This document shows, in pieces, positions 2,780 through 57,615 of a stretch of 64,000 bases of DNA. The translations under genes were made by a program, and so were the position numbers. The notes beneath the pieces are model-generated. The model saw only the letters and a list, made by a program, of their open reading frames with translations, was not told where the DNA came from and made no database searches. Positions within the stretch are counted from its first letter, which is position 1. Each line of letters begins with the position of its first letter. This DNA is from Neocallimastix sp. 'constans' (lineage: Eukaryota). The DNA lies in assembly GCA_050613775.1 (NCBI GenBank), contig JBODTK010000152.1:124001-188000 (forward strand), in the 5' to 3' direction.

Positions 2780-3510
2780 TGTAAAAATGTTCCTTATGGA
2801 GCAGATTACAATTACGAAAAAACAAAAAAAACAACAAAAACAACACTATCAATAACAATACTCAAATGAAATTTATTTTTTAAAAAAAATTCTTTTATTA
2901 ATCACTTTATTATAAAAATTCTTTTTATTAGTTATTAACTGCAAAATAGTTAATAACAACTACATTTTTTTTTAATAGAATAATTTTACATGTATTTATA
3001 TTTTTTCTTAATTATATTATAATATACTATTTCTATTTATTTAAACATATATTCAATATAAAATAAACAAAAACTAATCTAAAATTAAATAAAGTTATAA
3101 AAAACTAAAACTAATTCAATAAGCTTTTTATTCAATTTGTTTTGACTCAAATTGAATAAGTTCTTATTTATTATTTATTTATTATTCTTTTATTATTAAT
3201 ACTATTAATTATATATTACTATTTAATTTTTATGATTATTAAACTAAACTAAAATTAAACTAAACTAAAATTATTAAAATATTTTATTACTAAATTTTAG
3301 GTTATTTAAAAATTAATTTTATATTTTTAAATTTATATATTATATGAAATATAAATTTATTATTAATTTTCATAAATCAATTAATTTCATATATTAATAT
3401 ATTTTTACATAATTTAATGCATTAGCATTATTTTGTAAACGTGAATTACATTAAATAATTTAATGTACAAAATAAATTAATGTACTAAAGATATTGATCA
3501 TATCTTTACA
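2780..3510 (-). mobile_element. Solo LTR inserted in Copia RNase H, reverse orientation
   Basis: TGTAAA...TTTACA termini; perfect 5-bp TSD gcctc (2775-2779 / 3511-3515); reverse-complement similarity to 3615-4365. Confidence 0.85.
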
Positions 3511-3614
3511 GCCTCAGGATCAATCGCTTGGATGTCCAGACAACAACAATCAGTAACAAGAACTATTGCATAAGTAGAATATATTGCCCTTTCTGAAGCT
3601 GTAGCAAATGGTTT

Positions 3615-4365
3615 TGTAAAGATTTAATAAAATCTTTAAAAATTAATTATTACATAATAAATTAATGTAATAAAATTACATAAATTTATAATTTACGTAT
3701 ATGAAAATTAATTATAAGTTTATGTAAACTTTTCATAAAGGATAAATTATTATTTAAATAATTTTGGATAATAAATTTAATTTAAATAATTTATTTAAGT
3801 TAGTTAATTTAGTTTAGTTTATTTAAAATAGTTATTCTATTTAACTTAGTTTAGTTAGTTTAAAATACTTTAAAATTAATTTCGGAATAGTTTTAATAGT
3901 TAAAATTAGTTTAAATAGTTTATAAAAATAGTTTTGAATTGTAAATACATAAACATTAGTATTAATAATATTTAAATAATAAATAAATAATAAATGAGTT
4001 CTTATTGAATTCAATTATTATTGTAAATAAGTTGAAAGCTTATTGAATTAATTATTGTTTAGTTTTAGTTAATTATTATTTAATAAAATTATTAATAAAT
4101 ATTTTATTTATAAATAAATAGTAATATATGTATATTAAATAGGTTTGATATATTAAAATGTAATAATGAAAAAAAATAAATACATGTAAATTTTTATAAT
4201 TAAATCGATGTATTAGCTATTGACTATCAAATAGTTAATAACGAGAAGAGATTTATTTTTAAATTTAATAAAAGATTATTTATTAAAAAAGGAATCTTTT
4301 ATTACGTGTTTAAAATATTTTGTGTATTTTGTTATTTGTAATCTGTTTCTTCCAAACTCTTTACA
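3615..4365 (+). mobile_element. Solo LTR inserted in Copia RNase H
   Basis: TGTAAAG...CTTTACA termini; TSD ggttt/ggctt (1 mismatch); similar to 1-470. Confidence 0.8.
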
Positions 4366-5443
4366 GGCTTATAGATTAAAAATATGCTAAATGAAATGTT
4401 TAAATGAAATTTGTAATAAATTTAAATGGAGACATCAGAGCATCCTTATTTGCTGCTGAAAATTATGCTATTAGCAAAAAACTTAGACATGTAAGAGTTA
4501 TCTATCACTACTTTAAAGAAAATATTGAAAGAAAAGAAGTAATTTTACATTACATTAAATCTGAAGAAAATTTAGCAGATATTTTAACAAAAGCTGTTAA
4601 TAAAAATCAAATAACTAATTTTGCAAACAAAGTTTTTGATAATACTTTGTTTAGGGGGGAATGTTAGAAAATTAGTATTTTTAATTTATATTTTTAATTA
4701 ACACGTTATTCAATACTTTTATTTTATTATAATTTTAAATATTAAATATTAAATAGTATATTATAAATAGATAGGATATATTACAATAAATATAGTTTAT
4801 ATAGTTTATGATACAAATAATATAGTTTTAAAAAATTTTTTATAAGCCTCTTTTGTATTATTTCTATTAAGTCATGGGGGTGTCATTTCGAAAATTTTTA
4901 TTACTGTAACGGAGGTGCTTCTATTGTAACGGCGGGACGGGGTATAGAAACACACAAAAGAAGAAAACTCAATAGGTTTACACTATCTGTATAAATAATT
5001 CGTTTTATTAGAAATATTTTTTATTAATTATAAAATTTAAAATAATTATTAATATTAATCAACAAGGTAATATTTCGAATTACTTATACGTTAATTATTA
5101 TTAATAAAAGCACGAAGAAAAATATTTCATTCGTGAAGTTCGCACTATTTATACTTTTAACGGAAAAACAGTTTTAACATGTAAAAATAATTTTAAAGAA
5201 ATATTTAGAAATATGTTTGTAATAATTAATAATGTAAAGTTTCTAGAATATAGATTTTAATTGATAAAAATGAATCTTATCAAAAAAGAATAAAATAATT
5301 TATATAATAAGAATTTCTAAATTCATTTCGGTTGAATTACGAACCGAAAGAATCTTTAACTTTCTATAATTTTATACAGAAAGAATATTCAAGAAGATAT
5401 TATTAATAATTAATAAAATAATTAATAAAATAATTATTTATGC

Positions 5444-5520
5444 AAAATGGGTTGAGGTGTGAGTCGAACCCATGAAGTATTGGTCATGGTCAATGTAACT
5501 AACCATTGAACCAAGGTTCT
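5444..5520 (-). ncRNA. tRNA-derived Pol III cassette (A box, B box, CCA, T4 run); not a functional cloverleaf
   Basis: Minus strand: agaacct-TGGTTCAATGG (A box at tRNA position 8)...GGTTCGACTC (B box)...aacCCA-TTTT; acceptor and T stems do not pair well. Confidence 0.7.
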
Positions 5521-6033
5521 AATTTTACTGACTGAGTGATAAGAATGTACTAAATAATGCATTCTTAATTAAATCTACGATTTATTTCTAATACATTATG
5601 TGTACATTATTATTTTTGTACTTTAATAAATTTTTAAATTCAAAGATTAAAAATTAGATCAAAAATTATATTAAACTTTATAATTTTTATATTAAATCTT
5701 ATATTAATAGTAATATTTTTATATATTTAAAACTTATATTAGCAATATTAATAATAAATCTTATTTTTTTTATATTAATAATGAAAATTTATATTAATAA
5801 TATTTTTATATATTGATAATTAAAAATTTATATATTATATTTTAACTTTTTATTATAAAATTTTATATCGAAATGTTTTATTTTATATTGAAAAATATTT
5901 TATTTTATTAAAAACCTTTATATTAGAATAGTATTTTTATTTTTATTTGAATATTTTAACAGATTGTAATAAAAATTATAGCCAATTAAATAAATTCTTA
6001 TTAGTAATATTTTAGATATTTTTAAATAAATAA

Positions 6034-6076
<43 letters not shown>

Positions 6077-6383
6077 TTTTATTAATATTATAAATGTATT
6101 TTATTTATATTGTTATAATTAAATTTTATATAATTAATTATAAAAATCAATTTAAATTTAATAGTTTTTAAAAAAAAAAAAAATAAATAAAATGTAATTT
6201 AGTGGCAAGAACAACTTTTATGCCTTGAAAAAAAGTATAAATAGTTGTAAATTTTGCTACTAATTTTTAAATATCATCAAATAAAATCAAATAAATTTAT
6301 AAATAAAAATAATAAATAAATAAATAAAATTTGTGTTTCCTTACTTTATTTTTATTTAATTCTCTAAAACCTTAACATTTATA

Positions 6384-6401
6384 TGGTGGAGATATCGGGG
6401 A
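6384..6401 (+). promoter_or_regulatory. Primer binding site, probably tRNA-Ala (G1)
   Basis: TGGTGGAGATATCGGGGA is complementary to a 3' end ...UCCCCGAUAUCUCCACCA typical of tRNA-Ala; identical in G2. Confidence 0.8.
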
Positions 6402-7072
6402 ATTAAATAGAAATAATAGTAAATAACATAGATTTTTTTTTAATTTTTTTTTTATTTTATATTGATAAACAAGTAAGTCGTTAATCCTTTGATTAACCCA
6501 TGGCGCTTGTTTGATATATATATATAAAAAAATTTTTTTTAAATAAGTAAAATTAAGATTCTAAAAAAACAAATTTTGTAAAATTATAACAAGGAGCGGA
6601 TAGAGCTCATACACAGTGTATTCTCAGATAGCAACAAATTAACTCTATTCATAGTAGGTTATTGAATAGTAGTTAATTTGGAGATTAATTGGAAAGTAGA
6701 CGAAGGTATTTGGTTACCGACCCGGTAATAATAGTTCAACCTTCAACGTTTCAACACACGAAGGTGCGGGTACTTTCCAAGCACTGGCGAATAAGGAGCT
6801 TACGTCACCGAAGGCGTAAGATTGTTTTTTTTTATATATATTTTTTTTTACTTTTCTTTGTGCTAGTTATAAGGCACTTTATTATATAAAGTATCAGACT
6901 TTGGCTAACTTCGCCATTTAAATTTTTTTTATTTTTTTTTATTACTGATACTTTATTTGTTTAATAATTCCTGTAAAAGAATCTTAATTTACTTGAAAAT
7001 ATTGTGTTTTTAGTTAATTTTTATTAGTTAATAAAAATATTATTGAATACTTTTAAAATTTTTTTTTTATTC

Positions 7073-7232
7073 CGTACATAGATTATCGGATTAAGTTTAT
7101 CCTACATAGTAATTGGGCTAGTAGGCTCTGAACTGCTATATTTTATATTGAATATAGTAATCGTGGCACACGCGTGGCATGACACCATTAGGTAAGCTGC
7201 ACGTCAGACAGTGTGTACTATCAGATTGTACG
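7073..7232 (+). ncRNA. Conserved structured RNA element in G1 5' leader
   Basis: Near-identical to 15064-15229, with compensatory changes in stems. Confidence 0.75.
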
Positions 7233-7400
7233 ACAATAAAGATTATTTTTTTGTATTTAATAATTATAATTAATTAATAATTTTATTAGCTATAACAATA
7301 CAATATTTATCGTTTAAAAAGAAAAATTTTTGAAAGGTGAAAATAATAAATAAAACTTTGCTTCTAAATTTATTACTACAAATATACTAAATTACAAAAT

Positions 7401-7592
7401 TCAAGTGGTCGATAAAGGTTTCGAGCTTGAAAAATATTCTATTGAGTTGTCGATAAAGATTTCGAACTTAAAATTATTCTATTGAGTTGTCGATAAAGAT
7501 TTCGAACTTAAAAATTATTCTTAATAAAGTAGTCGAAAAGAACCTCGTGCTTTATAATTTCTACTAAGTTGTCGATAAGGATTTCGAGCTTA
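7401..7592 (+). repeat. Five ~40-bp tandem hairpin repeats in G1 leader
   Basis: Unit (t/a)aagt-tg-tcga-taaagatt-tcga-actt repeated at ~7401, 7441, 7481, 7525, 7565. Confidence 0.85.
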
Positions 7593-7766
7593 TATCTACT
7601 AAAGAAAGCAAATAAAATTATTATTTTCAAAAGTTACTAAAATATATTGTTTTAAAAATTGATTCGATATTAAATTACCTATTAAATTATATTTTTAAAG
7701 TTGTATTTCCAAATTTATTCTTATTTAATCACCTCATTAATATACAACAAGAAATATTTAAACAAA

Positions 7767-8678
7767 ATGTCCAAGGAAACAACTTTGAGCTTTAAAGAAT
7801 TGAAAAAAGAATTAAGAGATATTGTGAAACTTAGCAAGGACAATTTAGATATTAAGTCCTGGGCTACTGAATTAAAACTTTGGATCAAGATACAAGGTAT
7901 TACAGATCCAGAAACAATATTTAATGCTTGTTTACTTACCAGCTCTGGTGAAGTACAACGCGTTATTGAAGATTTGGGAGAAGATAGTGATGATGAAAGT
8001 GATGATTCATCAGATGAAGAAGAAGAAGATGATGAAGAAGAAAATGTTGATGATGATATTAAATTTCCTTCCCTTGAAAAAATTATTTCAAGTCTTGAAA
8101 ATTTTTACGGTATTAAAGAAGACCAAAATTTACTTCTTAAAGAACTTCGTGCAATGCGAATTAAAAGAAACGAAAAGATTAAAGACTTTAATGTAAGATA
8201 TAGAACTTTGTACACTAAACTTGATAAAAAGAGAAGAAAGCGCATTGGTGTACTAGATTATATTGATTCTATTCAAAATAATTATGAAGCCTGGAAGAAA
8301 TTATCCCTTAAAGATGATATAAGTATGGATAAAGCTTTCAAAATTGCCGAGAAAGTAGATAGACTTTCTGTAAGGAACAATAATATTAATACCTATAATG
8401 TTAATAATTCCCAACATAATCAAAATAATCAAAACAGTACTACTTCAAGACTTTATCCTAAAAGAAGAAACGAAACTTTCCAAACAAATCAAACAAATAA
8501 TAAACCGAAACCTCAAGATATTATAGAAGAATCAACCCAGAAAATGAGAAATTTATCCGTTAAAACTTGCTTCTTCTGTAAGGAAGAAGGTCATTACTCA
8601 TATTATTGCCCTCAATTAAATAAGATTATGGAAAAAAATAAAAAAGAAATATATTCCAAAAAGTCTTTAAACTTCTAA
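7767..8678 (+). CDS. gag: Gag of G1 (acidic tract, CCHC zinc knuckle)
   Basis: ATG at 7767; CFFCKEEGHYSYYC knuckle; homologous to 15386-16303. Confidence 0.92.
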   Translation: MSKETTLSFKELKKELRDIVKLSKDNLDIKSWATELKLWIKIQGITDPETIFNACLLTSSGEVQRVIEDLGEDSDDESDDSSDEEEEDDEEENVDDDIKFPSLEKIISSLENFYGIKEDQNLLLKELRAMRIKRNEKIKDFNVRYRTLYTKLDKKRRKRIGVLDYIDSIQNNYEAWKKLSLKDDISMDKAFKIAEKVDRLSVRNNNINTYNVNNSQHNQNNQNSTTSRLYPKRRNETFQTNQTNNKPKPQDIIEESTQKMRNLSVKTCFFCKEEGHYSYYCPQLNKIMEKNKKEIYSKKSLNF

Positions 8679-8718
8679 ATGGGAGCAGAAGCACTCCCAA
8701 TGACAAAACAATAGCTTC
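8666..8718 (+). promoter_or_regulatory. -1 ribosomal frameshift signal (T TTA AAC + H-type pseudoknot), G1
   Basis: Slippery heptamer in gag phase; -1 frame is open into pol; stems gggag/ctccc and gaagc/gcttc. Confidence 0.85.
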
Positions 8719-11700
8719 ATTAAATAATTTACAAAATAATACTTTTACTAAGAATACTCCAATTGATAATAATTCCTTTAACGAAGAATCTGAAGAATCT
8801 GATTTTAGTGACACAACTGAAAGTGAGGATGATATCATTATAAATGCTGTAAAAAGAAAAATGAATGATAATAACAGCGAAAAAGAAGAAAATAATTCCA
8901 AGAAAGTACATAAAAGTTTAAAAGATAATCCACGTCCTTTTGCAACTCCTGCTTTAAGAAAGAAGAAAGAAAATGAGCTGCATAATAAACCAAATAAAGT
9001 TTATAAAAATCAAATACTTCCTTCAATTTTAACTCAACCAAATATTAACAAAGAAAAACAAAAAGAAAAGGAATTAAGAAATATGACAAGAGTAAGAGAA
9101 AGTAAAGAAGAAAACAACAATTATTCATCAAAAGGAAAGGAAAAAGTTGAATCTGAAGATATACTTGTAATCGATAATGAAATAGAAGATCTAGAAATGA
9201 ATAAAGATAATCAACAAAATAAAACTAATACTTTGGAAAAATTAATTTCAACAAAAACTAAGGAAACTAATAATGGAAATACTCAATTAGTAAAAAGGAA
9301 TATCAAAATGATGAATAATAAAGAACCTTACAATATTATGGATGATTTAAATAATCTTAAATCCAGTATTACGATAGGTCAACTCTTGAATGCATGTCCT
9401 AAAATTCGTTCACAATTAACTCAAGGTTTAAAGTTAGAAAAGTCTAAAATAATTGGAACTGTAGACAATGTAATAGCACGAACTTTATTAGTAAATAACT
9501 ATGACCATAGCTACATAAGTAAAAGTAATGAAGTAGCCGAAGAAGACTTAGCAATGGTTGATGCAAGTGTTGACGGAGTACTAGGAAAACTTTTAATTGA
9601 TTCTTGTAGTAACCTAAGCATCGTTACTAAGCAGTATTTTGATAAATTACCTGGTGAATATGAAACAGTTGGAAAAAGTCGTGGAAGAATCCAACTAGCA
9701 ACACAAGATGAAGAATACTCGGAAGGAATTATTGTTCGATTACCAGTAAAAATTAATAATTATGAATTTAATGCGGACTTTAGAATTATTGAGAAAGAAG
9801 ACTCATTTTATGATATGTTAATAAACTTTAAAACTCAAATCGATCATTGTTTATTTATTCATCCAACCTTAAACAGTCTATGTAAACTTTTGTCAGAAAG
9901 TGAATACGAAGAAATAGCTAAAATAAATAATCAATATTATGATGAAGAAAGTATAATCTGCACTATTAGAAAAGTTGAAGAAACGAATAATGAAAAGGAA
10001 ATTATAAAGGAATTAACTCCAATGGAATTTATTGAGAGTGATGAATTTTTAAGTACCTTAAATAAAGATTATAAAGAACAAATTATTAAAATTCTCAAAG
10101 AAATGATTGACATAGTTGCCACTTCAACAGAAGAACTAACTCCTTCTAAACTTTCACCACATAAGATCCGTTTGAAAGCAAATGCAAAGCCAGTAAAATT
10201 AAGAAGTTATAGGTTAACTAAATTAAAATCAGATATCTTAAAAGAAGAACTTACAAAGCTTATTAAGAAAGGATTGATAGAACCATCCTGTTCAGAATGG
10301 TCATCTCCAGTAGTACTCATTCTAAAACACAATGGAAAGTGGCGCTTGTGCATTGACTACCGAAAAGTCAATGATATGACAGAAAAAGATTCTTATTCAG
10401 TTCCATATATAGATGAAATTTTTGATAGTCTCGGAGGAGCTAAAATATTTACAACTCTTGATTTATTTTCTGGTTTTCACCAAATCTTAATGGATGAAGA
10501 AAGCGTTGAAGTAACCACTTTCACTACTAAGTTTGGAAATTATCAATTTAAGGTTATGCCTTTTGGACTTACTGGAGCTCCCTCAACCTTCCAAAGAGAA
10601 ATGAATAAAATTTTATTCCCTTTTATTGGTGAATTTGTTTATGTATTTATTGATGATGTTTTGATCTATTCAAAAAGTATCGAAGAACATTTAATTCATA
10701 TTAAACAAGTATTAGAAGTATTTAAAGAAAACAAGTTAAAAATTAATATTGAAAAGTGCCATTTTCTTCAAACTGAAGTTGATGTATTAGGTCACAAACT
10801 TACTACTAAAGGATTAAGTCCCATGGAAAGTAAGATAACAGCTATTAAGAAGTGGGAAGCCCCTTCATCACTTCATGAATTAAGATCATTTTTAGGAGCA
10901 GTGGGATATTATCGTGATTTTATTCCTAAATATGCTCAAATTACCTCACCTTTATGTAAATTATTGAAAAAGAATACCAAATATGAATGGAATAAAGAAC
11001 AACAAGAAAGCTTTGAACTCCTAAAAGAAAAATTAATCAATGCACCTATTCTAAAATTTCCGTCATTTGACAAACCTTTTATCATTAGAACTGATGCTTC
11101 GTATAATGGAATTGGTGGAGTTCTTTTACAAAAAGAAGAAGAAACCGGTAAGGAGCATCCAATACACTTTATAAGTAGAAGTTTAAAGAAAGCTGAAAAG
11201 AATTATGGTATTACCGATTTAGAAGGAACCGCTTTGTTTTACTGTATGACTAAATTTAAATCTTATATTGAAGGAAATCCATTACCTACAACTATTTACA
11301 CAGATCATAAACCATTAGTTGGTTTATTTAAGAATAAAGAACCTTTGAATGCAAGGCAAACAAGATGGTGTCTAACCGCTAGTATGCTCGGAATTAATAT
11401 AAAATATGAATCAGGCAAAAAGAATGTGTTAGCTGATGCTCTTTCAAGAATGAAAAGTAAGGAAGAGAGAAAGATATTATTAACAAAAATTACTAATGGA
11501 AATAATGAAGAATTATTATCTAAAGTTATAAAGGAATTTATTAATGAAAAGTTTACTGTTATTGATGGTGAAGATTATTTTATCGACAATGGAAATTATA
11601 GAAAATTAATAACGGACGAAAATGAAAGGTTTAAATTAATTTTAGAAGCTCATAATATTGGCCACGAAGGATATTACAAAACATATCAAAGACTTAAGAA

Positions 11701-12676
11701 AAACTTTTATTGGAATCATATGATTAAAGATATCAAAAGAATTGTTAGTAATTGTGAAAAATGCCAGTTAAATCGTCCTCAACCATATCCAGAACCAACC
11801 GAAATCCATCCAACTAAAGTGGAGGGTCCCTTTGTGCATTTAGGATTAGATATTATAGGACCGTTACCAAAAACAAGAAATAATAATCAATATATTATAG
11901 TAACTGTTGATTACTTTACCAAATGGGTTGAAGCCGAACCCACTGAAAACATAACTTCCTCTGATATAATTAAATTTTTAATAAACGTTTTTGCAAGACA
12001 TGGTGTGCCTCAAGTTATTACTACAGATAATGGAGTCCAATTCACTTCTGATATGACTAAAATCTTTCTTGATCTTTATGATGTTTATGTAAAATTCATA
12101 GCTACCTATCACCCTGAATCCAATGGTCTCACTGAAAACCGAAATAAAGAAATTGGAAAATTACTTCGTTTATTAGGAAGGAAAAATCAAGATTGGGATG
12201 AAGTTTTACCTTCTGCTTTATGGGCACTTCGAACTACCAAAAACACAGCTACCGGACATTCTAGTTTTGAATTAGTATATGGAAGAGAAGACCAACAGCC
12301 TTATGATATAGCCATAAGAACAATTGAAAATGCAGGTAAATCGTATGATGAAATTTTAATGGAAAAATTTGTTCGTCATTATCAATGGACTAGAGAAGCA
12401 TGCGAAAATGTGAAGAATGCTAACAAGTATTGGGCAACAAGACGAGAAGAACAAATAAGTATGAAAAAAGGAAAAGAATTAAAAGCTGGTGATCTTGTTC
12501 TTGTTAGAAACTTTAGCCGCACTAAGCTAGAACCATATTACAATGGACCATTTAAAATTTTAAAAATTCAATTCAACACGGCAACCTTAATCGATCAGAA
12601 AACTGGGAAACAACTCGATAGGAATGTTCATTTTAAAAATTTAGTAAAGTTTAACTCCGCTTACAGAGAAGCTTGA
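8666..12676 (+). CDS. pol: Pol of G1 (protease-RT-RNase H-integrase), expressed by -1 frameshift
   Basis: LIDSCS protease, FIDD RT, TDAS/ADALSR RNase H, H-H-C-C and DDE integrase, GPF C-terminal motif, no chromodomain. Confidence 0.95.
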   Translation, partial: FKLLNGSRSTPNDKTIASLNNLQNNTFTKNTPIDNNSFNEESEESDFSDTTESEDDIIINAVKRKMNDNNSEKEENNSKKVHKSLKDNPRPFATPALRKKKENELHNKPNKVYKNQILPSILTQPNINKEKQKEKELRNMTRVRESKEENNNYSSKGKEKVESEDILVIDNEIEDLEMNKDNQQNKTNTLEKLISTKTKETNNGNTQLVKRNIKMMNNKEPYNIMDDLNNLKSSITIGQLLNACPKIRSQLTQGLKLEKSKIIGTVDNVIARTLLVNNYDHSYISKSNEVAEEDLAMVDASVDGVLGKLLIDSCSNLSIVTKQYFDKLPGEYETVGKSRGRIQLATQDEEYSEGIIVRLPVKINNYEFNADFRIIEKEDSFYDMLINFKTQIDHCLFIHPTLNSLCKLLSESEYEEIAKINNQYYDEESIICTIRKVEETNNEKEIIKELTPMEFIESDEFLSTLNKDYKEQIIKILKEMIDIVATSTEELTPSKLSPHKIRLKANAKPVKLRSYRLTKLKSDILKEELTKLIKKGLIEPSCSEWSSPVVLILKHNGKWRLCIDYRKVNDMTEKDSYSVPYIDEIFDSLGGAKIFTTLDLFSGFHQILMDEESVEVTTFTTKFGNYQFKVMPFGLTGAPSTFQREMNKILFPFIGEFVYVFIDDVLIYSKSIEEHLIHIKQVLEVFKENKLKINIEKCHFLQTEVDVLGHKLTTKGLSPMESKITAIKKWEAPSSLHELRSFLGAVGYYRDFIPKYAQITSPLCKLLKKNTKYEWNKEQQESFELLKEKLINAPILKFPSFDKPFIIRTDASYNGIGGVLLQKEEETGKEHPIHFISRSLKKAEKNYGITDLEGTALFYCMTKFKSYIEGNPLPTTIYTDHKPLVGLFKNKEPLNARQTRWCLTASMLGINIKYESGKKNVLADALSRMKSKEERKILLTKITNGNNEELLSKVIKEFINEKFTVIDGEDYFIDNGNYRKLITDENERFKLILEAHNIGHEGYYKTYQRLKKNFYWNHMIKDIKRIVSNCEKCQLNRPQPYPEPTEIHPTKVEGPFVHLGLDIIGPLPKTRNNNQYIIVTVDYFTKWVEAEPTENITSSDIIKFLINVFARHGVPQVITTDNGVQFTSDMTKIFLDLYDVYVKFIATYHPESNGLTENRNKEIGKLLRLLGRKNQDWDEVLPSALWALRTTKNTATGHSSFELVYGREDQQPYDIAIRTIENAGKSYDEILMEKFVRHYQWTREACENVKNANKYWATRREEQISMKKGKELKAGDLVLVRNFSRTKLEPYYNGPFKILKIQFNTATLIDQKTGKQLDRNVHFKNLVKFNSAYREA

Positions 12677-13191
12677 GTCTTCGTCGGGGCATCTTGATAA
12701 GAATGTACTAAATAATGCATTCTTAATTAAATCTACGATTTATTTCTAATACATTATGTGTACATTATTATTTTTGTACTTTAATAAATTTTTAAATTCA
12801 AAGATTAAAAATTAGATCAAAAATTATATTAAACTTTATAATTTTTATATTAAATCTTATATTAATAGTAATATTTTTATATATTTAAAACTTATATTAG
12901 CAATATTAATAATAAATCTTATTTTTTTTATATTAATAATGAAAATTTATATTAATAATATTTTTATATATTGATAATTAAAAATTTATATATTATATTT
13001 TAACTTTTTATTATAAAATTTTATATCGAAATGTTTTATTTTATATTGAAAAATATTTTATTTTATTAAAAACCTTTATATTAGAATAGTATTTTTATTT
13101 TTATTTGAATATTTTAACAGATTGTAATAAAAATTATAGCCAATTAAATAAATTCTTATTAGTAATATTTTAGATATTTTTAAATAAATAA

Positions 13192-13234
<43 letters not shown>

Positions 13235-13539
13235 TTTTATTAATATTATAAATGTATTTTATTTATATTGTTATAATTAAATTTTATATAATTAATTATA
13301 AAAATCAATTTAAATTTAATAGTTTTTAAAAAAAAAAAAAATAAATAAAATGTAATTTAGTGGCAAGAACAACTTTTATGCCTTGAAAAAAAGTATAAAT
13401 AGTTGTAAATTTTGCTACTAATTTTTAAATATCATCAAATAAAATCAAATAAATTTATAAATAAAAATAATAAATAAATAAATAAAATTTGTGTTTCCTT
13501 ACTTTATTTTTATTTAATTCTCTAAAACCTTAACATGAG

Positions 13540-14085
13540 TGATGCAGTATTTAAATAAAAAGAGAATATTATCAAGAAATAAAATTAAATATAATAAATA
13601 ATTAGTTAAATTATATATGTATATTATAATAATAAATAGTAATATAAAAATTATTAAATTTATTTAATTAGTTAATAGCCAATAGGATTTAATTTATAGT
13701 AAATTAGAAATTAGAAATATAAAAGAAAAATTATTATAATTCTTTAAAGAAGAGGAGGTTTTTTTTATTTGGAAAAAAATAGAGATAAAATTGGTTAAAA
13801 TAAATATATTTGGGGAATATATTTATTTATCAAAAATTTTAATAGTAATAAGTTAGTTAGAAATAAATAATTAATAAGATCTTTAATAACATTTTATTAT
13901 AAAATTTGTATTACGACATAAATAATTTAAATAAATAAATAAAACGACAAAACTATAATTTTTTTTATATTTTGTTTTAATATTAACGTGTATTGTAATT
14001 ATATATTTTTATATTAGAATATATTTTTATTTAATACAATCTTGCTAACCACAAAAACATTGATACTTATAGAAATAACGTATCA
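13540..14085. mobile_element. Solo LTR of a third family between G1 and G2
   Basis: TGATGC...CGTATCA termini flanked by tgag on both sides (13536-13539, 14086-14089); its reverse-complement start tgatacgtta matches the solo LTR at 52005. Confidence 0.8.
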
Positions 14086-14884
14086 TGAGTAATACAGAAT
14101 GAACAAATAATACTAATTGTGCTAGAATAATATAAATTATTCTAACCTTATAGATTATTCTATTCTATATAATTGGAACTTTCCAATATTCTTCAAATAT
14201 TACTAAATAGAAATCTTAAGTTAATAAATCACTAATTAACTTATAATTCCTTTTTGAATTATCGATCCGATTCCATTATAATGTATTAAAAATCTTTAGC
14301 CAAGAATATTGTCCTTGCCCACTTAATATATTAATATTATATTTCTTTTGTATTATGTTATATTGAAAATAATCAAATCTATTTAATTAGTTATTAAAAT
14401 TTTCGTTATCAATTTAAATTTATTTTTAATTACTAAATTTAACTAAACCACAATAAAATATTCTGTATAATCTCTTTATTTTTATTTTATATATATTAGT
14501 ATTAAACTATTATTAAATAATTAATAATTCAATAATATATAACTACTATTTATAACAATAATATTATTAACTAAAATAATAATTCAATTTCAATTTAAAT
14601 GTTTTATTTATAAAAATAATTAGTAATTAGTTTATTAAAAAAATAGTTAGGCTTTACAAATTTTAATTTGATAAAAAAATATAAATACATGTAATTTTAG
14701 TGAAATAAAATATAATCAATAACTTTCTTTTTATTAAATAAATAATTATATTATTATTTTTCTTTTATAAATTTAAATAAATAAATATTGATTTTAAAAC
14801 AAATTATTTTTTTTATTGTAATTTTATTATTTGTATTAATTATTATTATATTCCTAAAAATATATGAACCATACCATGAAAAAT

Positions 14885-14902
14885 TGGTGGAGATATCGGG
14901 GA
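14885..14902 (+). promoter_or_regulatory. Primer binding site, probably tRNA-Ala (G2)
   Basis: TGGTGGAGATATCGGGGA, identical to the G1 PBS. Confidence 0.8.
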
Positions 14903-15063
14903 ATATAATAATAAATTAATACATTGGGGATAAAATTATAATATTAATAAATAATTTTTCTAATAAAACAAATATTTTTTTAAAAAAGAAAACAATTTTT
15001 ATATTTTTAACTAATTATTATTAATTGTTAAAAATATTAATTAATATTAAATTAAACTAATAT

Positions 15064-15229
15064 TCGTGCATAGATTTCCGGGTTAAGTTTATCCTACATA
15101 GTAATTGGGCTAGTAGGCTCTGGACTGCTATTTTTTATATTGAAAATAGTAACCGTGGCACACGCGTGGCATGACACCTTTCAAGAGGTAAGCTGCACGT
15201 CAGACAGTGTGTACTATCAGATTGCACGA
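15064..15229 (+). ncRNA. Conserved structured RNA element in G2 5' leader
   Basis: Closing stem tcgtgca/tgcacga; internal stems cctac/gtagg and gcacac/gtgtgt; homologous to 7073-7232. Confidence 0.75.
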
Positions 15230-15385
15230 TTATTATAATTTAATAAATGATTAATAATAATAAATAATTAATAATTTTATTAGTTAAAAGATTTATTTTT
15301 TTTAATTTTTTTTTATTTTTACTTTTTTATAACAATTTATACATTACGAGGTTTAGCATTCTATAGATACAATAAATTTTATTTT

Positions 15386-16303
15386 ATGAGAACATCCAGT
15401 ACTTCCAGTACTCCAACAGAGAGTACTCCAGAAAGTAAGCTTAGCTTCAGAGAATTAAAGAAAGAATTAAAAGATTTTGAAAAGCTTACTAAACAAAACC
15501 TTGACATCAACTCCTGGGCAAATGAGTTAAAGGCATGGATAAAATACCAACATATCAAGGATCCTGAAACTATTTTTACTGCTTGTATATTAACGGCTTC
15601 TGGAGAACCAAGAGAAATTATTCAAGAACTAGAAGATGGAAATGACCTTACTGAAGATGAAGATTCTGATTTCGATAGCGATAGTGAAGGAGAAGATGAT
15701 GAAGAAAGTGAATCTACTACCACCTACCCAAGCCTTGATGAAATCATAAATCATCTGAAGACTTTCTATGGACTTAAAGAAGATCAAACCAACTTGTTAC
15801 GAGAATTGCGTTCCATGAAAATAAAGAAGAACGAGAAAGTTAAAGATTTTAATGTCCGTTATAGATCTTTGTACCATAAATTGGATAAAAAGAGAAGAAG
15901 AAAAATTAGTGTTTTAGATTATGCAGATTCCTTAACCAATAATCCTGACGCATGGAGAAAGGTTATGCTTAAAGACAATATTTCTATTACTAAAGCATTC
16001 GCTATAGCTGAAAAAGTTGATCGTTTATCTATTAAAAATAGTACTGAATATTATGATAAGACTCGTTACAATCTCCTTAACTCTAAAAGTAATTTTAATA
16101 AGAACATTTCAAATGATTTTAACAAACCAAAAACCCACAAAAATGTATCTATAGAAAATCTCACTAACAAGATGAAAGAAATGAAAATTAGTACTTGCTG
16201 GTTTTGTAGCAATGAAGGACATACCAAACGAAACTGTCCTAAATTAAATTCTATATTGGAAAATAACCGCAAGAAGTTTTATGAAAATTATTTAAACCAC
16301 TAA
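15386..16303 (+). CDS. gag: Gag of G2
   Basis: CWFCSNEGHTKRNC knuckle; homologous to G1 gag. Confidence 0.92.
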   Translation: MRTSSTSSTPTESTPESKLSFRELKKELKDFEKLTKQNLDINSWANELKAWIKYQHIKDPETIFTACILTASGEPREIIQELEDGNDLTEDEDSDFDSDSEGEDDEESESTTTYPSLDEIINHLKTFYGLKEDQTNLLRELRSMKIKKNEKVKDFNVRYRSLYHKLDKKRRRKISVLDYADSLTNNPDAWRKVMLKDNISITKAFAIAEKVDRLSIKNSTEYYDKTRYNLLNSKSNFNKNISNDFNKPKTHKNVSIENLTNKMKEMKISTCWFCSNEGHTKRNCPKLNSILENNRKKFYENYLNH

Positions 16304-16343
16304 AAGGGAGTAGAAGCACTCCCATCGTCAAAAAAATTGCTTC
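16291..16343 (+). promoter_or_regulatory. -1 ribosomal frameshift signal, G2
   Basis: T TTA AAC in gag phase; stems gggagt/actccc and gaagca/tgcttc; -1 frame continuous with pol. Confidence 0.85.
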
Positions 16344-19300
16344 AGTCTGCCATCGTCCCAAAACAGTTGACTTAAAAGAAGATGATGATTATGAAGAAAT
16401 TGCTGATTTCCAAGAAGGTACTACTACGGATTATTACGAAGATTTTGATGATGAGTCGGATGGTTCCAAAGAATTGGATTACTTAGTAAACGTTATAAAG
16501 AGAAAGGCAAATCCTAAAGATGAAGAGACTAGTGACCAAAGAGGAAAGAGGGTTCACCGTAGTCTAAGAGATGATCCTAAGCCAATAGTTACTCCAGGTT
16601 TACGAAAACAAAAAGAAAATCAATTAAGGGGAACATCGCGACCAGTCAAAAAGCCAACAACTCAATTACATCCTTCGATTATGACTCAACCCAGAATAGA
16701 GAAAGAAAAGAGGATTGAGAAAGAGCTAAGAGATAAGGAAAGAGCTAGTACTAGTACTTCTGTGGAAAATAATAAAAATAGTAATGTTAATATTATTAAT
16801 GAAGAAACTTCTCAGGAAAGAAATAATTCTAAACAAACTTTAAATAAATTAATTCAAGAAAAATCATCAGAAAAATCAACTGAAATTATGCCAACTAGAA
16901 TTCCAAAAAGAATACAAATGCAAACTGATTGTGATAGTTATGACGTGATCAAAGATTTAAACTCCAGTAATTGCAATATTACATTTGGACAATTATTGGA
17001 CGTTGCTCCAAAGATACGGTCTCAAGTATCACAAGGACTTAAATTAGAAAAGAATAATACTAAAATTTCAGGTGCAGTGGATAATATGTGTGCTACTACA
17101 ATAATAACAAACAATATAGATCATACATATAAAAGTAAACATCATGAACCACAAGAAGATGATATTGCTATGGTTGATGTAATAGTAGATGGAGTTCGTG
17201 GTAAGGCTTTAATAGATTCATGTAGCAACTTAAGTATTATCACAAAGCAATTTTTAGATAAATTACCTTATCAGTATGAATCTATAGGAGTTAGTGCAGG
17301 ACGAATACGTTTAGCAACGATGAATGATGATTACTCAGAAGATGTGTTAATCAAAGTTCCCGTAAAAATTAATGAACTAGAACTACTTGTTACGTGTAGA
17401 ATTATAGACAAGGAGGATCCATTCTATGATATATTAATCAACCTCAAAACTCAAATTGATAACCAGTTATTTATACATCCAATTAGATATAGTCTTTGTC
17501 GATTTAATGATCAAGGTTTAATTGAAGAAATTGCACCTATTAATAATGAATATGATGACGAAGAAAAATTATTATGTGTAATCAAAGCATTGAATCACCA
17601 AGAAGCTAAGCAACAATTGAAAACGATTGAAGGATTACCACCCATAAAATATATATATGACACAGTTTTTCAAAGTACAATTAATTCAAATTATAGAGAA
17701 GCTATTGCTAAATTACTTGAAGAATATATTGATATAATTCCAACTTCTTCTGAAGAATTAACACCTTCAGATTTATCACCACACAAAATTATTCTTAAGG
17801 AAGGAGTTAAACCTATTAAACAAAAATTTTATCGACTTAGTAAATTAAAAACAGATATCTTAAAAGAAGAATTAACCAAACTCATATATAAACGATTAAT
17901 TGAACCTTCATGTTCAGAATGGTCATCACCAGTAGTACTTGTGCCTAAAAAGAACGGTAAATGGCGCCTGTGTATTGACTATAGGAAAGTAAATGAAGCA
18001 ACTAAGAAGGATTCTTATTCTTTACCAAATATTGAGGAAATTTTTGATAGCTTAGATGGAGCAAAAATCTTCTCAACATTAGATCTTTATTCCGGTTATC
18101 ATCAAATATTAATGGATGATGATAGTGTTGAAATCACTACCTTTACAACTAAGTTCGGAAACTACCAATTCAAGGTAATGCCCTTCGGTTTAACAGGTGC
18201 TCCAGCTACATTCCAAAGAGAAATGAACCGTATACTATTTCCCTTAATAGGAAAATGCGTCTATAACTTTATCGATGATATTTTAATCTACTCAAGAACT
18301 GAAGAAGAACACCTAGAACATCTTAAACAAGTCTTAGAAATATTCAAGGAACATAAGTTAAAAATCAATATTGAAAAATGTTCTTTCATGCAAACTGAAG
18401 TAGAAGTACTGGGACATAAAGTATCCTCAGAAGGTTTAAGTCCATTGGAAAACAAAGTTAAAGCTATTAAAGAATGGAAGGCTCCCTCTAACATTCATGA
18501 ACTTCGATCATTTTTAGGAGCCATTGGATATTATAGAAATTTTATTAAGGACTTTGCAAAAGTTACTGCTCCTCTCTGCACTCTATTAAGAAAAGGTATT
18601 AAGTTTGAATGGAAAAAGGAACAAGAAGAAAGTTTTAAAATTCTTAAGGAAAGATTAATCAATGCCCCAATATTAAGATTTCCTAGATTTGATAGAGAAT
18701 TTATTATAAGAACAGATGCTTCCTATGATGGAATAGGCGGTGTGCTTTTACAAAAGGATGATGAAACTGGAAAGGAGCATCCGGTTCATTATATTAGTAG
18801 AAGTTTATCTAAATCGGAAAAGAATTATGGAATTACGGATCTAGAAGGTGCTGCTCTAATTTACTGTATTAATAAATTAAAATCTTATATTATGGGAAAT
18901 CCTAAGCAAACTATAGTATATACAGATCATAGACCATTAATCGGATTACTTAAAAGTAAGGAACCACAAAATTCTCGTCATACTAGATGGTGTTTGACTG
19001 TCAGTATGTTAGGAATTGATTTACGATATGAAACTGGAAAGAATAATGTTGTCGCAGATGCTTTATCAAGAATGAAAAATGAAAAAGAAAAAATTGTCTT
19101 AACAACACAAATTATCAAGGAACAAGATGAAAACCTGCTTTCAAGAACCATTAAGGAATTTATTGAAGAAAAATTTACGACAATTGATGGTGTGGACTAC
19201 TTTGTTGATGGCAATAATTATAGAAAATTAGTTACAGATACAAAAGAAAAACTTCAATTAATTTTTCAAGCACACAGTATAGGACACGAAGGCTATTACA

Positions 19301-20293
19301 AGACATACCAACGTTTGAAAAAGAGCTACTATTGGAACAATATGGTTAATGACATTAAGCGAATTATAGGTAAATGTGAAAAATGTCAATTAAATAAATC
19401 TCAACCATACCCTGAACCAACGGAAGATAAACCAACTGAAGTGGAAGGACCATTTATACACTTAGGATTGGACATTATAGGACCTCTAAGTAAAACCAGA
19501 AATAATAATCAATATATAATCGTTGTGGTTGATTATTTTACTAAATGGGTTGAGGCAGAGCCCACTGAAAATGTTACTTCTCAGGATGTGATAAAATTTT
19601 TAATTAATGTATTTGCTCGACATGGTGTACCTCAAATTATCACTACTGATAATGGAACACAATTTACATCAGATATGACAAAATTCTTCCTTGATTTATA
19701 TGATGTATATGTTAAATTTATCACTCCATATCATCCTGAAAGCAATGGTTTAGTTGAGAATCGTAATAAAGAAATTGGAAAATTATTACGATTACTAGGA
19801 AAACAACACAAAGAATGGGATGAAATTTTACCATCTGCACTTTGGGCTTTAAGAACTACTAAAAACTCAATCACCAACCATTCAAGTTTTGAATTAGTTT
19901 ATGGAAGGGAGGACCAACAACCTTTTGACATTGCTGCCAGACCAACTAAAGGTATAAATAAGTCTTCTGACGAAATTCTACTGGAAAAATTTGTATCACA
20001 CTACCAATGGGTAATGGAGGCCGCATCTAATATCAAAAATGCTTCGAAGTATTGGGCTACTAGGAGAGAAGAAAAGACCAGTATGAATCAAGCTAAAAGA
20101 ATAAAACCAGGTGATTTAGTACTAGTAAGAAACTTTAATCGAACTAAATTAGAACCTTACTTTGTTGGACCTATGAAAGTGGTAAAGTAACAATTCAATA
20201 CAGTCACTTTAGCTGATCCTGCTACTAATATACAAATGAATCGTAATGTTCATTTGAAAAATATTGTCAAGTTTAACTCAGCTTCTACCTAGC
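16291..20293 (+). CDS. pol: Pol of G2 with a premature TAA (20188-20190) in the integrase C-terminus
   Basis: Same domains as G1; after the stop the frame continues QFNTVTL...RNVHLKNIVKFNSAST*, matching the G1 C-terminus. Confidence 0.93.
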
Positions 20294-21459
20294 TTGAGTC
20301 TTAGCGGGGGCATCTTAATACAGAATGAACAAATAATACTAATTGTGCTAGAATAATATAAATTATTCTAACCTTATAGATTATTCTATTCTATATAATT
20401 GGAACTTTCCAATATTCTTCAAATATTACTAAATAGAAATCTTAAGTTAATAAATCACTAATTAACTTATAATTCCTTTTTGAATTATCGATCCGATTCC
20501 ATTATAATGTATTAAAAATCTTTAGCCAAGAATATTGTCCTTGCCCACTTAATATATTAATATTATATTTCTTTTGTATTATGTTATATTGAAAATAATC
20601 AAATCTATTTAATTAGTTATTAAAATTTTCGTTATCAATTTAAATTTATTTTTAATTACTAAATTTAACTAAACCACAATAAAATATTCTGTATAATCTC
20701 TTTATTTTTATTTTATATATATTAGTATTAAACTATTATTAAATAATTAATAATTCAATAATATATAACTACTATTTATAACAATAATATTATTAACTAA
20801 AATAATAATTCAATTTCAATTTAAATGTTTTATTTATAAAAATAATTAGTAATTAGTTTATTAAAAAAATAGTTAGGCTTTACAAATTTTAATTTGATAA
20901 AAAAATATAAATACATGTAATTTTAGTGAAATAAAATATAATCAATAACTTTCTTTTTATTAAATAAATAATTATATTATTATTTTTCTTTTATAAATTT
21001 AAATAAATAAATATTGATTTTAAAACAAATTATTTTTTTTATTGTAATTTTATTATTTGTATTAATTATTATTATATTCCTAAAAATATATGAACCATAC
21101 CACTGAGGATTTCGTTACAATTACAAAAATTTATATTTTGTTGTAGTGCATTTCGGAAAACATGGCGTATTATAATGTAATAAATAAATAAATTAATAAA
21201 TTAATTATAAATGACTAAAAAAATTTTTTTTAGAAAATTAAATAAAAAAAAATATAATTATTGTATATATAAAATAATTATTATATTTTTTTATTTTATT
21301 TTAAATATTATTAATTATTATCAATACCTTGTTTATATTATCAACAGAATTACATACGTAATTACATAATTGAATAATTAAAAAAAATAAATATAAAAAT
21401 AGGTTTATAATTAGTACTTTTCATAATATTATATTAAAGTATTAATTTTATAAATTAAA

Positions 21460-22193: not shown

Positions 22194-22555
22194 AGTTTTA
22201 TTAACGTTTGTCTTTTAATTATTATATTTTATTATAAAAAAAAATAAATAAATAGTAAATAAAAAAAATTAAATAAAAAGTAAATAATTTTAATTATTTA
22301 TAATTCATATTTTCATAAACGATATATATATATATATTAATTTAAATAATATAATAATTAAAAATTAAAACAATAAGAGTTAAATAATTGTTCCTATTAA
22401 AATAATTAATTATTTGGGTAGTGATATTTATAATGTTTGATCAATATGAATCAATTATTATTAAAATATAATAATAACAATTTGAATTTTAATAAAATAA
22501 TAAAAATCTTTTATTGAATTTAATATTTTTAATAACATAATTAATTTTGAAAAGT

Positions 22556-22805
22556 ATATTGATATTAATAAAATTTATAATTATATAATATTGATATTGA
22601 TATTAATAAAATTTATAATTATATAATATTGATATTGATGTTAATAAAATTTATAATTATATAATATTGATATTGATATTAATAAAATTTATAATTATAT
22701 AATATTGATATTGATATTAATAAAATTTATAATTATATAATATTGATATTGATATTAATAAAATTTATAATTATATAATATTGATATTGATATTAATAAA
22801 ATTTT
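22556..22805. repeat. ~40-bp tandem repeat x6 downstream of MULE transposase
   Basis: Unit atattgatattgatattaataaaatttataattatataat; related units at ~37000-37125. Confidence 0.9.
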
Positions 22806-23018
22806 AACTAGTATCAAATATATCGGTTTTAGTTATAAATTACTTAATAAAAATAGCTAAAAGATAATTTCTATTAAGATTATTAAATAAACACAATAGG
22901 TAAATAAATTTGTATTTTTTTAAATTAAGATTATTTAATTATTATTTAAACGATTATAAATATAAATTTAAAATAAATAAATTTGTATTTTTCTAGCATT
23001 TTTTTAAATTAAGATTAT

Positions 23019-24475
23019 TTATTTTAAATTAATATTTATATCGTTTAAATCAATTAAACAATCTTTCCATAATTTAACTAATTCATTTCTGTTGCATCCA
23101 TTATAAAATAAATTGATTTCCTTACTTTTGTAATTTTCAATTAAAATTTTAATTTCATCAGTTGCACTAAATATTTTTTGCTTTTTTTTTCCCCCAAGTT
23201 CCTTTAGTTCTCCTTTGGTAATCATTATAAGATAAGTTTTCTTCTTCTTTTAATATATATATTATTTTATAAAATAAAGGTTTATTTGGAAATATATTAT
23301 TTAAGTAGCTATTATAAGATTCTGATGCATTGTTTGTTAAATGCTCTATATTTTCATAATAATTCCAATTATTAACATTATACTTAAGTAAATAATTTTT
23401 ATTAAAATACTCTAAAAATTGTAGAAAATTATTATACTTTTTTTTGACAAATTCTTTTTATTATAATATAAAAATCAAATATATAGTTAGGGTTTATAAA
23501 CGGTAAGTTCGAAATAGCTTTATAATAAATATATACATCATTATTATTCTTCACTTCATGATAACATAATATATTTTTTTGTTTTTCTAATGATCTTTTG
23601 TAATGCCAAACACAATATTTAATATTTATATTGGGAAAAATTTTTTTTGCGGCATTAGATATACCTTGTTCAAAATCACAATGAAAATTAATTGTAGTAA
23701 TTAATGTATTACTCCTAAATTTATTTGCATTTTTTTTTTTTCTTTAAATAATGTTTCATATGTAGATTGTTTTTTATTTTTTAATATAGAAATGGAAGTA
23801 GTGTAAAACATATTAAATTCCCCAACATAAGTTCTTGTTATAAATAACTGATAACTAAATTTCGGTGCTGCATAAAATGTTCAGTCCGCAAATATATTTT
23901 TATGATAATTCGAAAATAAATATGCTTGGAATGGTGATTGAAAGATTATTAGATCAGTATTTTTAAATATCATAAAATTTTCAATTCTTTTCGTTTTATA
24001 ATTTTTTGATTCAATGGGAATATCATCAAAACTTTTTATGTTTGGAGGAAATTGTTTATTTATATTTCTTATTATTTGGGATTAAATTGTACTATATTCG
24101 GGACATATAAGCCCCCATTTCTTGAGAAACGGCATTAAATATATGTTTAGGTTTTATAACCATAGGAATTGAATTTTTCCTAATTTCTTCCTTAATTTTA
24201 TGTTTTGCTACTGATATAGACACATCAATTTCTTTTTCGAGATGGTTATGTAAACTTTCATATTTTAAAACCTCCTTTTTATCATTTAAAATAATTAAAG
24301 ATTTTCATTTATTTAAAGTCATATATTCAGTGCATCTATAAATTTTTGATATCTTTCCTTTGAAATGAAAAATTAAATTTGTATTTTTTATTAATAATAA
24401 TTTGTTCATTTCCTCGATTTGTTTCATTTATTTCAATTTCTATATTGTCTTCAATTGATAATTAAAATTTTCCAA
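23019..24475 (-). pseudogene. MULE (Mutator) DDE transposase, frameshifted
   Basis: Minus-strand motifs ETNRGNEQIIINKKYKF, IFAD, HCDFEQ, YCVWHYK, TNNASES; homologous to 37192-38594 and 62555+. Confidence 0.88.
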
Positions 24476-25813
24476 TAAAATATTTAATAAATATACTTTT
24501 AAATGCTTTGAAACTTTTACTTTTTTAATATTTAAAATAATAATTCTTTTTTAATTAATTATATAATTATTTAAATAATTATTTAATTATTAATTATTTA
24601 TTATTTTTTTATTTACTATTTTATTAATTTATTTTTATTTTTTTTTTATTTTTATTGTTTATTTTATTTTATTTTTTTTATTTTTTATTTTATTTTTTTT
24701 TTTATTTTTTATTTTACTTTTTTTTTTTTATTTTTTAATGTTTAAAAAAAAAAAGTTTTCTTATTATTTTATTTTATTTTTAAATGTTTAAAAAAAAATT
24801 TTTTTGTATTTCTTATTTTTTTTTTTTTTTTATTTTTATTTTATTGTTCAATGTTTAAAAAAAAAATGTTTATTTAATTTTATTTTATTTTTTAATGCTT
24901 AAAAAATAAAATATTTATTTATTTTTATTTGATTGTTCAATGTTTAAAAAAAAAGTTTTCTTATTTCTTATTTTTATTTAATGTTTTATTTATTGAAGTG
25001 TTGTATTTCGCCAAAAGTTGAATTTCGTCCAGTTGAATTTCGCCAAATTCTTGGTAGCTTATAAATTTACGTCATAAAATATCACCACAATTATTATTCA
25101 CGTCATATTGTGAATATATGGCTTTTTAAAAATTGTAGAAAAAAGACACAAAATTATGATACAATTAGATATACGCCCCACGTAAGATTACGTGTTTGAA
25201 AATTTTTGAGAATTGTAATTTTATTTAATTATTTAATTAATTATTTTTCGTTAAAATTTTAATAAAATTAAGTGGCTTAAAATTAAAAATATTTAAGCCA
25301 TATAACAAAATACAAATTTTTGTAATAAAAATTTTCGAAATGCACACTCCCCTAAGTCATGTATTTAATATAATAAAAATGTACGTTCCATTGAATGTGA
25401 ATATAAAAAATAAAAAATATTAAATCATGTATTATTATTATTAAAAAAAAAAAGGTTCTTTAATAAAAATAAAAATTTTAGTAAAAAGAAAATATTTATT
25501 TACGATTTTTTGTCAAAATTGATAAAAAGTATTTAAAATAAATAAATAAATACATAAATAAATAAATAAATAAATAAATTAAAATTAAAAAAAATCTATA
25601 TATAAAAAGAAAAAAAATTCTTTTAATTTTAATTTTTTTTAATGTAAAGAATATATTTTTTTTTGAAGAATATATCTTTAAATAAATATATAACTAAAAT
25701 ATTCTTTAAAAATAAAAAATAAAATATTTTTGAAATTCTCATTATATATATATAAAAAAATAAAATATTATTGAAATCTGTAAGAAGAGTATTTAAAAAA
25801 AAAATTAACAATT

Positions 25814-38687: not shown

Positions 38688-38732
<45 letters not shown>

Positions 38733-51817: not shown

Positions 51818-51819
51818 AA

Positions 51820-55430: not shown

Positions 55431-55440
55431 TTAGTAATTA

Positions 55441-57611: not shown

Positions 57612-57615
57612 ATTT

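Follow-up and report, generated by a model that had tools for sequence, protein, structure and literature searches.

Stacked Ty3/Gypsy insertions upstream of a Pol III type-2-like cassette carried by a probable Helenus-like LTR in Neocallimastix

Why should several retrotransposons of different families enter a genome at one and the same point? The question is raised by a 64 kb stretch of DNA from the gut fungus Neocallimastix sp. 'constans' (assembly GCA_050613775.1, contig JBODTK010000152.1, positions 124,001 to 188,000), hereafter the window. Two full-length Ty3/Gypsy elements, G1 and G2, and a solo long terminal repeat (LTR) lie stacked inside another LTR, the host LTR. All three joined it just upstream of a cassette with the A and B boxes of an RNA polymerase III (Pol III) type-2-like promoter. 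The answer favoured here, and probably the right one, is that Pol III start sites are where a chromodomain-less gut-fungal Ty3/Gypsy clade integrates, and that a Helenus-like LTR carries such a site round the genome. The window has 19.8% G+C and contains eukaryotic genes with introns; Neocallimastigomycota genomes have 16-22% G+C overall (PMC6883316).

Insertions at three host LTR ends

The stack is genuine. Self-BLAST and sequence inspection gave the order ctgag, G1, tgag, solo LTR 1, tgag, G2, ctgag, the anatomy that a first-pass annotation of this DNA had described. The common insertion point which that annotation placed 16 bp upstream of cassette position 1 also proved correct: the G1 junction lies 16 nt upstream, and the sense-strand join is at -16 for all three insertions, with the opposite join varying by one base (5 vs 4 bp). 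Removal of the inserts restores a 644-bp TGTAAC..GTTACA element, host copy 1, flanked by an attac duplication at 4900-4904 and 21120-21124. An empty allele was found in run X6, where three contigs diverge after 5535 into AGATTTCGT, which is the host end with the duplicated bases present once. Thus the host site exists without inserts and the G2 duplication is 5 bp. Since the outer ctgag can be explained by G2 alone, G2 inserted first, as had been proposed. The relative order of solo LTR 1 and G1 is model-dependent because their duplications are symmetrical; the claim that the solo LTR preceded G1 presupposed the model and is dropped. The stack site has not moved although the DNA upstream of it was replaced twice and the host terminus was pushed 7-8 kb away. 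The LTR pairs of both elements (841 bp each in G1, 787 bp each in G2) are 100% identical. Solo LTR 1, in which no internal region was seen, is taken to be an LTR from its termini and duplication.

The first-pass annotation proposed at its core that elements insert at a set position upstream of a cassette borne by an LTR. Two further, independent cases in the same window support this, and the position agrees with the range of the known elements DGLT-A and Ty3. The older host copy at 52 kb received solo LTR 2, which lies 14 nt upstream of cassette position 1. Its excision gives a 28-nt spacing from the LTR end to position 1, the same as in copy 1. Solo LTR 2 has no real similarity to the other LTRs and represents a fourth LTR family, its identity as an LTR again being judged from termini and duplication. 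The B-box region of this copy is deleted (the equivalent of 5275-5483). The deletion joint is found in one contig of run X6 (depth 42) and one of run X8 (depth 33), like other one-contig joints; this suits a single later deletion and leaves it undated. At the third host-like end an older G2-family LTR is oriented as G2 is with respect to the host. Its identity of 95.6% to the G2 LTR shows that it was not copied from the young stack.

The 9-mer that opens the host end occurs three times in 64 kb, and in all three cases an LTR junction follows, 17, 18 or 19 nt inward. Altogether, all three host copies of the window have been entered 17-19 bp inward of their end, by five LTR insertions from four families. 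The four measurable ones, at -16, -16, -16 and -14 of position 1, all fall in the Pol III start-site window of 13-19 bp; the fifth, in the third copy, is consistent in position, its distance from position 1 being unmeasurable there. The duplications differ among these insertions (ctgag, tgag and attc). Together with the stability of the site after upstream replacement, this places the determinant on the cassette side, as a position rather than a duplicated motif. Where it can be measured, in two copies, the junction lies 6 nt upstream of the C of a TCAG motif (a post hoc observation, and copy 1 has two such motifs), so that the shift from -16 to -14 follows a 2-nt indel. The motif resembles the yeast Pol III initiator ttCAan, the start motif at which Ty3 joins (PMC6673722).

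The two TGAT[AG]C..G[CT]ATCA pairs that have a duplication are both found at cassettes; in shuffles the mean is 0.035 and none of 200 has two, for a pattern defined post hoc from the observed solo LTRs. All five LTR insertions identified with termini of the type seen in these families are at host ends, though solo LTRs of unknown families may lie elsewhere. A broad scan for TG..CA ends with a duplication returned 22 candidates, mostly AT-only, and its noise prevents a count of solo LTRs outside cassettes.

Table 1. Host LTR copies, cassette and inserted elements, in window coordinates
Feature	Position	Strand	Details
Host LTR copy 1, cassette-bearing part	4905-5536	.	TGTAAC..GTTACA termini; attac duplication
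Pol III type-2-like cassette	5444-5520	-	position 1 at 5520; A box 5513-5503; B box 5469-5461; T4 run 5447-5444
Target bases ctgag, cassette-side copy	5532-5536	+	-16 to -12 of cassette
G1, full-length Ty3/Gypsy	5537-13535	+	841-bp LTRs 5537-6377 and 12695-13535; 4-bp tgag duplication
G1 internal	primer-binding site from 6384; gag 7686-8678; pol 8642-12676	+	pol in -1 frame
Solo LTR 1 (putative)	13540-14085	.	546 bp; TGATGC..GTATCA; 4-bp tgag duplication
G2, full-length Ty3/Gypsy	14090-21102	+	LTRs 14090-14876 and 20316-21102; 5-bp ctgag duplication
G2 internal	primer-binding site from 14885; gag 15284-16303; pol from 16285	+	pol in -1 frame
ctgag, far copy of G2 duplication	21103-21107		
Host LTR copy 1, displaced 12-bp end	21108-21119	.	
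Older host LTR copy (52 kb)	51806-52004	-	78-83% in BLAST blocks; degenerate A box 51983-51973; position 1 at 51990
Solo LTR 2 (putative)	52005-52594	.	590 bp; TGATAC..GTATCA; 4-bp ATTC duplication
Displaced end of 52-kb host copy	52599-52612	.	
Third host-like LTR end	55142-55160	+	19 nt; cassette side lost
Older G2-family LTR, 3' 270 bp	55161-55430	-	95.6% to G2; adjoins third host end

The host LTR and its cassette

The cassette begins 29 nt from the host LTR end (28-nt spacing to position 1) and has a canonical 44 nt from the A box start at 5513 to G53 of the B box at 5469. The window has a single match to a strict A+B consensus, and none of 200 block shuffles has one. A loose consensus also occurs once, against a mean of 0.44 over 100 shuffles, which is not significant; because the loose form also arises in shuffles, only the strict form is beyond chance. 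The cassette had been called tRNA-like. Box spacing and the T4 run bear this out, while the cloverleaf does not: ARAGORN found no tRNA gene in the window, Rfam gave no tRNA match at E<=10, only 1/7 pairs of the acceptor stem and 3/5 of the T stem form, short of a functional tRNA, and the 'CCA' lies outside the 74-76 register. Its fold is instead an A-box hairpin (z -3.6).

That the cassette belongs to another LTR, also claimed at first pass, is upheld by the termini, by the attac duplication and by the many copies in sequencing runs. Runs X1, X6, X8 and X15 contain multiple copies of the host LTR, with ends that vary, and the runs that contain window DNA are from isolates and feces metagenomes. 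In run X8 the host unitig has a depth of 5632 vs 18-86 for diverged pieces, which suggests a family on the order of a hundred copies. The host copies seen are only solo or broken. Contigs of an RNA run extend beyond both LTR ends, with 30 letters visible on one side and no clear primer-binding site (PBS) or polypurine tract (PPT). A 20-nt duplication lies at the host LTR edge (4905-4924), and other subfamilies appear to begin at the equivalent of 4925. In an RNA-run contig the tandem duplication at this edge (4905-4932) seems to contain 12 nt of internal flank, which may be a candidate anticodon-loop-type PBS as in fungal Helenus. The host was also considered as a DNA transposon and this was set aside, the inverted ends being only 7 bp.

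The closest described elements are Helenus and TRIMp3, whose LTRs have tRNA-type A and B boxes and no functional tRNA (PMC10886601, Kojima 2024). The host LTR shares with them the boxes within the LTR, TG..CA ends, multiple copies, common solo LTRs and, with fungal Helenus, a 5-bp duplication; Cassandra LTRs likewise contain tRNA-gene A and B boxes. It differs in its A box (TGGTT vs the usual Helenus TRGCY) and in size, whole Helenus elements being 311-1263 bp vs 624-644 bp for the host LTR alone, which is rich in T runs. Fungal hosts in Table 1 of that paper are rusts and Agaricomycetes only, with no gut fungus, and its supplements may list more; the part available has no description of Helenus as a target of other elements. 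By comparison, the host is thus likely a Helenus-like LTR, and the cassette would be the promoter of that LTR or what remains of such a promoter. Nothing supports the suggestion that the cassette is a decoy promoter; the cassettes of Helenus and Cassandra are read as promoters of the elements themselves.

Downstream of the cassette the host LTR contains 14 T runs of at least 4, six of them of at least 5, making a full-length Pol III transcript of the host doubtful. In RNA run X15 a single contig crosses the host LTR (depth 15.7); being unstranded and possibly DNA, it says nothing on Pol III transcription, and its depth peaks near 5392-5465 arise from short AT-rich partial matches. The cassette motif had no matches in viral contigs.

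The G1 and G2 elements

G1 and G2 have the organization of Ty3/Gypsy elements, with two LTRs, a PBS, a PPT, a target duplication, and gag followed by a reverse transcriptase (RT)-RNase H-integrase region; a protease had no Pfam match in either. They are 79% identical in RT, 75% in RNase H and 77% in integrase. G2 has a copy-specific stop codon at 20188, overlooked at first pass, which cuts the integrase C-terminal domain and is absent from a metagenome locus 98.8% identical (L011). The PBS is TGG-type and starts 6 nt (G1, gap 6378-6383) or 8 nt (G2, gap 14877-14884) after the LTR. A PPT G run lies 5 nt before the 3' LTR (12690-12694), and these gaps are longer than usual. The G2 LTR begins with TA, not TG.

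Two shared non-coding features were also observed. A leader block of 290 bp (7007-7295 in G1, 15004-15289 in G2) is 82% identical between the elements vs 72% for pol DNA and contains a CACGCGTG palindrome with modest folding (z -2.8 and -2.0); it is a candidate packaging or dimerisation signal. At the gag-pol overlap of both elements (8640-8700 and 16290-16345) a TTTAAAC slippery site is followed by a conserved GGGAG..CTCCC stem, likely a -1 frameshift signal as judged from the sequence.

Relatives of the G1 integrase were taken from the best 120 of 242 matches, 98 of which form a close group. The sole named match among the close relatives listed carries the JGI label Orpsp1_1, that of an Orpinomyces/Pecoramyces genome. 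For an RT-RNase H tree, rooted on a plant match, a length filter left 115 of 122 sequences, a set that includes neither Ty3 nor DGLT-A. G1, G2 and 95 of the 98 close relatives form one clade of 97 (FastTree support 0.976). The chromo family was found neither in the domain search of G1 and G2 nor in the precomputed domains of the 98 closest among the matches listed.

The integrase's C-terminus is relevant to targeting. G1 and its 20 closest relatives among the matches listed end right after the SH3-like C-terminal domain, about 40 aa past the GPY/F motif in G1. The alignment of G1 with the Ty3 Gag-Pol structure (7q5b) reaches residue 1444 of 1547; G1 then ends after 7 more residues, without a vestigial chromodomain of the Ty3 type. 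The first-pass annotation had held that these integrases lack a chromodomain as Ty3 does. This is right for G1 and G2 and wrong for Ty3, whose C-terminal domain contacts TBP and is followed by a vestigial chromodomain that contacts Brf1 (10.1101/2021.07.27.453949).

G1, which ends before that domain, therefore has a DGLT-A-like rather than a Ty3-like architecture. DGLT-A, a Ty3/Gypsy element of Dictyostelium, has a 32-aa extension after GPY/F and no chromodomain (PMC5006619); 18 of 20 of its insertions are 13-18 bp upstream of tRNA genes, and its RNase H binds Tfc4 (PMC6101501). By description, DGLT-A resembles G1 and G2 in its distance of 13-18 bp from position 1, its short integrase extension and the missing chromodomain, and it differs in using real tRNA genes in a compact genome and in having a single ORF (open reading frame), where G1 and G2 have gag and a pol in the -1 frame. 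Among solved structures the best match to the RT-RNase H region is Ty3 of S. cerevisiae (E 1e-76), which shares the Ty3/Gypsy domain order, integration at Pol III start sites and a short duplication. Unlike G1 and G2, which sit in the separate 97-sequence clade, Ty3 uses +1 frameshifting, and it has the Brf1-binding vestigial chromodomain that G1 lacks. A third element, Tj1 of S. japonicus, inserts in one orientation (PMC4600332). The three orientable insertions in the window likewise share one orientation; G1 and G2 point away from the cassette, whereas Tj1 points as the gene does.

Targets outside the window were sought in contigs. The summed contig depth of the G1 LTR is roughly 3-5 times that of the host LTR in three DNA runs, a ratio that is not a copy number and that hints at G1 targets beyond the host LTR or at frequent stacking. 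A merged G1/G2 LTR-start pattern gave 119 loci in metagenome contigs, of which 117 were chance and none was an insertion junction; the two true LTR starts (L011 and L053) are internal-to-3'-LTR joins without an insertion flank. Protein scans (query P0001) confirmed no loci in viral contigs or genome contigs.

Explanations and wider context

How would a promoter inside an LTR collect insertions? TFIIIC would bind the A and B boxes of the cassette and position TFIIIB upstream. The intasome of the G1/G2 clade would dock at the Pol III start site and join DNA at a fixed distance. The promoter, being internal, would be left intact by each insertion and outlive it, so that the next element would enter between the cassette and its predecessor, and insertions would stack outward. 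Docking might occur through the SH3-like C-terminal domain, which contacts TBP in Ty3, or alternatively through contacts of RNase H or an N-terminal extension with TFIIIC, as proposed for DGLT-A; since the G1 integrase has no chromodomain, it would need those other contacts. All protein contacts in this scheme are extrapolated from Ty3 and DGLT-A, and real tRNA genes are probably also targets. The positions, the differing duplications, the priority of G2 and the intact empty site, in turn, are observations. Solo LTR 2 at -14 supports Pol III targeting, since here the host copy is diverged and both the duplication and the LTR family are different. A known parallel to the stack is TRE5-A, which targets A/B-box loci without tRNA context and forms tandems (PMC5391098). 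It too inserts repeatedly before one Pol III promoter, with head-to-tail tandems at a single tRNA gene, and it also uses bare A and B boxes, but it is a non-LTR element, lies about 47 bp upstream and uses fixed loci on Dictyostelium rDNA rather than a mobile LTR.

Several observations weigh against Pol III targeting. The 52-kb copy now has no B box and a degenerate A box, so that the model needs a deletion after the insertion. The third copy has lost its cassette side, and -13 or -14 there is deduced from the 28-nt spacing; if this copy equals copy 1 minus 8 nt, the site adjoins position 1, a misfit. The chromodomain that sets the distance in Ty3 is absent from G1, and the duplications are 4 vs 5 bp despite integrases that are 77% identical. 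No G1 or G2 insertion was found at a real tRNA gene, the window having no such gene and the metagenome scan no junction, and all sites come from a single 64-kb window.

Alternatively, the host LTR DNA may set the position without Pol III factors. The integrase clade would then be attracted by the A-box hairpin, which may form a cruciform and contains the LTR-end motif TGTAAC as an internal copy, or by a sequence-specific host protein bound there. The hairpin is the best-kept block between two host copies (18/18 core identical), it folds well (z -3.6), the cassette has no cloverleaf, and the 52-kb copy was hit yet is now without a B box. On this reading, however, there would be no need for a T run, nor for strict A and B boxes that keep the canonical spacing; the insertion distance equals that of two unrelated Pol III-targeting Gypsy lineages; and the B-box deletion, with its one low-depth contig in each of two runs, looks as a later one-locus deletion is expected to. 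This explanation is unlikely, though it deserves to be kept in mind. It is very unlikely that the first element landed by chance and that later ones were drawn to an earlier LTR end or to tgag. The tgag common to all three stack insertions, the T(G/A)AT(A/G) common to four LTR starts, and the earlier LTR start that solo LTR 1 and G1 each adjoin would fit such self-targeting; it is weakened by solo LTR 2, which entered a host copy without prior insertion and duplicated ATTC, and by the G2-family LTR that entered the third host end with a different flank. An assembly artefact, or chance in a transposon-dense region of 80% AT, is extremely improbable. Both LTR pairs are identical down to homopolymers, as collapse or polishing can produce, and no contig among the matches listed bridges the whole stack. 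Against this stand the duplications, which are clean at every one of the four junctions and nested, at 4 and 5 bp, as a mis-join would not make them, the empty allele in another run and two more host copies, diverged in sequence.

The usual explanation of Pol III targeting is that it offers a safe harbour where the genome is compact and its set of tRNA genes fixed. With a mobile LTR as the source of targets, sites could multiply as the host family does, and the dynamics of two unrelated elements would become coupled. One element would then make integration sites for another, easing the limit that tRNA gene number sets on position-specific elements, which could bloom in a repeat-rich genome; the passengers would destroy the host LTR they enter. 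A 2018 review listed tRNA-targeting elements from ascomycetes and dictyostelids only (PMC5911963). In the literature searched (including PMC12859917), as far as it was available, there is no report of gut-fungal Pol III-targeting elements or of an LTR-borne Pol III promoter as a target. Both halves, LTR-borne Pol III boxes and Pol III-targeting elements, are known; their combination is apparently new in that literature. If Pol III targeting holds at these LTRs, the short list of Pol III targeters would gain the Neocallimastigomycota as well as an integrase that lacks the Ty3 chromodomain. Such targeting would also suggest, indirectly, a loading of Pol III factors by Helenus-type cassettes, and it would point to a native site-specific integrase in fungi short of engineering tools. 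In 2012 Qi et al. reportedly found a few Ty3 insertions at Pol III sites other than tRNA genes, some in Ty LTRs, which if right would be a partial precedent. The broadest version of the proposal is plausible and falls a little short of being probable: that Pol III start sites are targeted by a large undescribed gut-fungal Ty3/Gypsy radiation that lacks the Ty3 chromodomain, with a Helenus-like LTR family of perhaps at least 100 copies as a mobile supply of sites.

The rest of the window is also rich in repeats. A degenerate Copia element with an RVT_2 domain occupies 1-4365 (LTRs 1-470 and 3904-4365, 88% identical), and more Copia-like LTRs are at 54844-55141, 60219-60535 and 61396-61605. A tandem array of about seven 38-bp units lies at 22518-22859. 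Three related MULE-type transposon relics, about 72% identical and one with a MULE domain, are at 23017-24930, 37180-38963 and 62066-63995. A Gypsy RT-RNase H fragment at 55438-56535 is joined to the truncated G2-family LTR; it was rejected as a member of the G1 clade at 30% identity. Finally, an ORF of 751 aa (57216-59841), with no Pfam match, is coiled-coil-rich and by eye Gag-like at its end, and lies between identical 73-bp direct repeats at 57144 and 59817.

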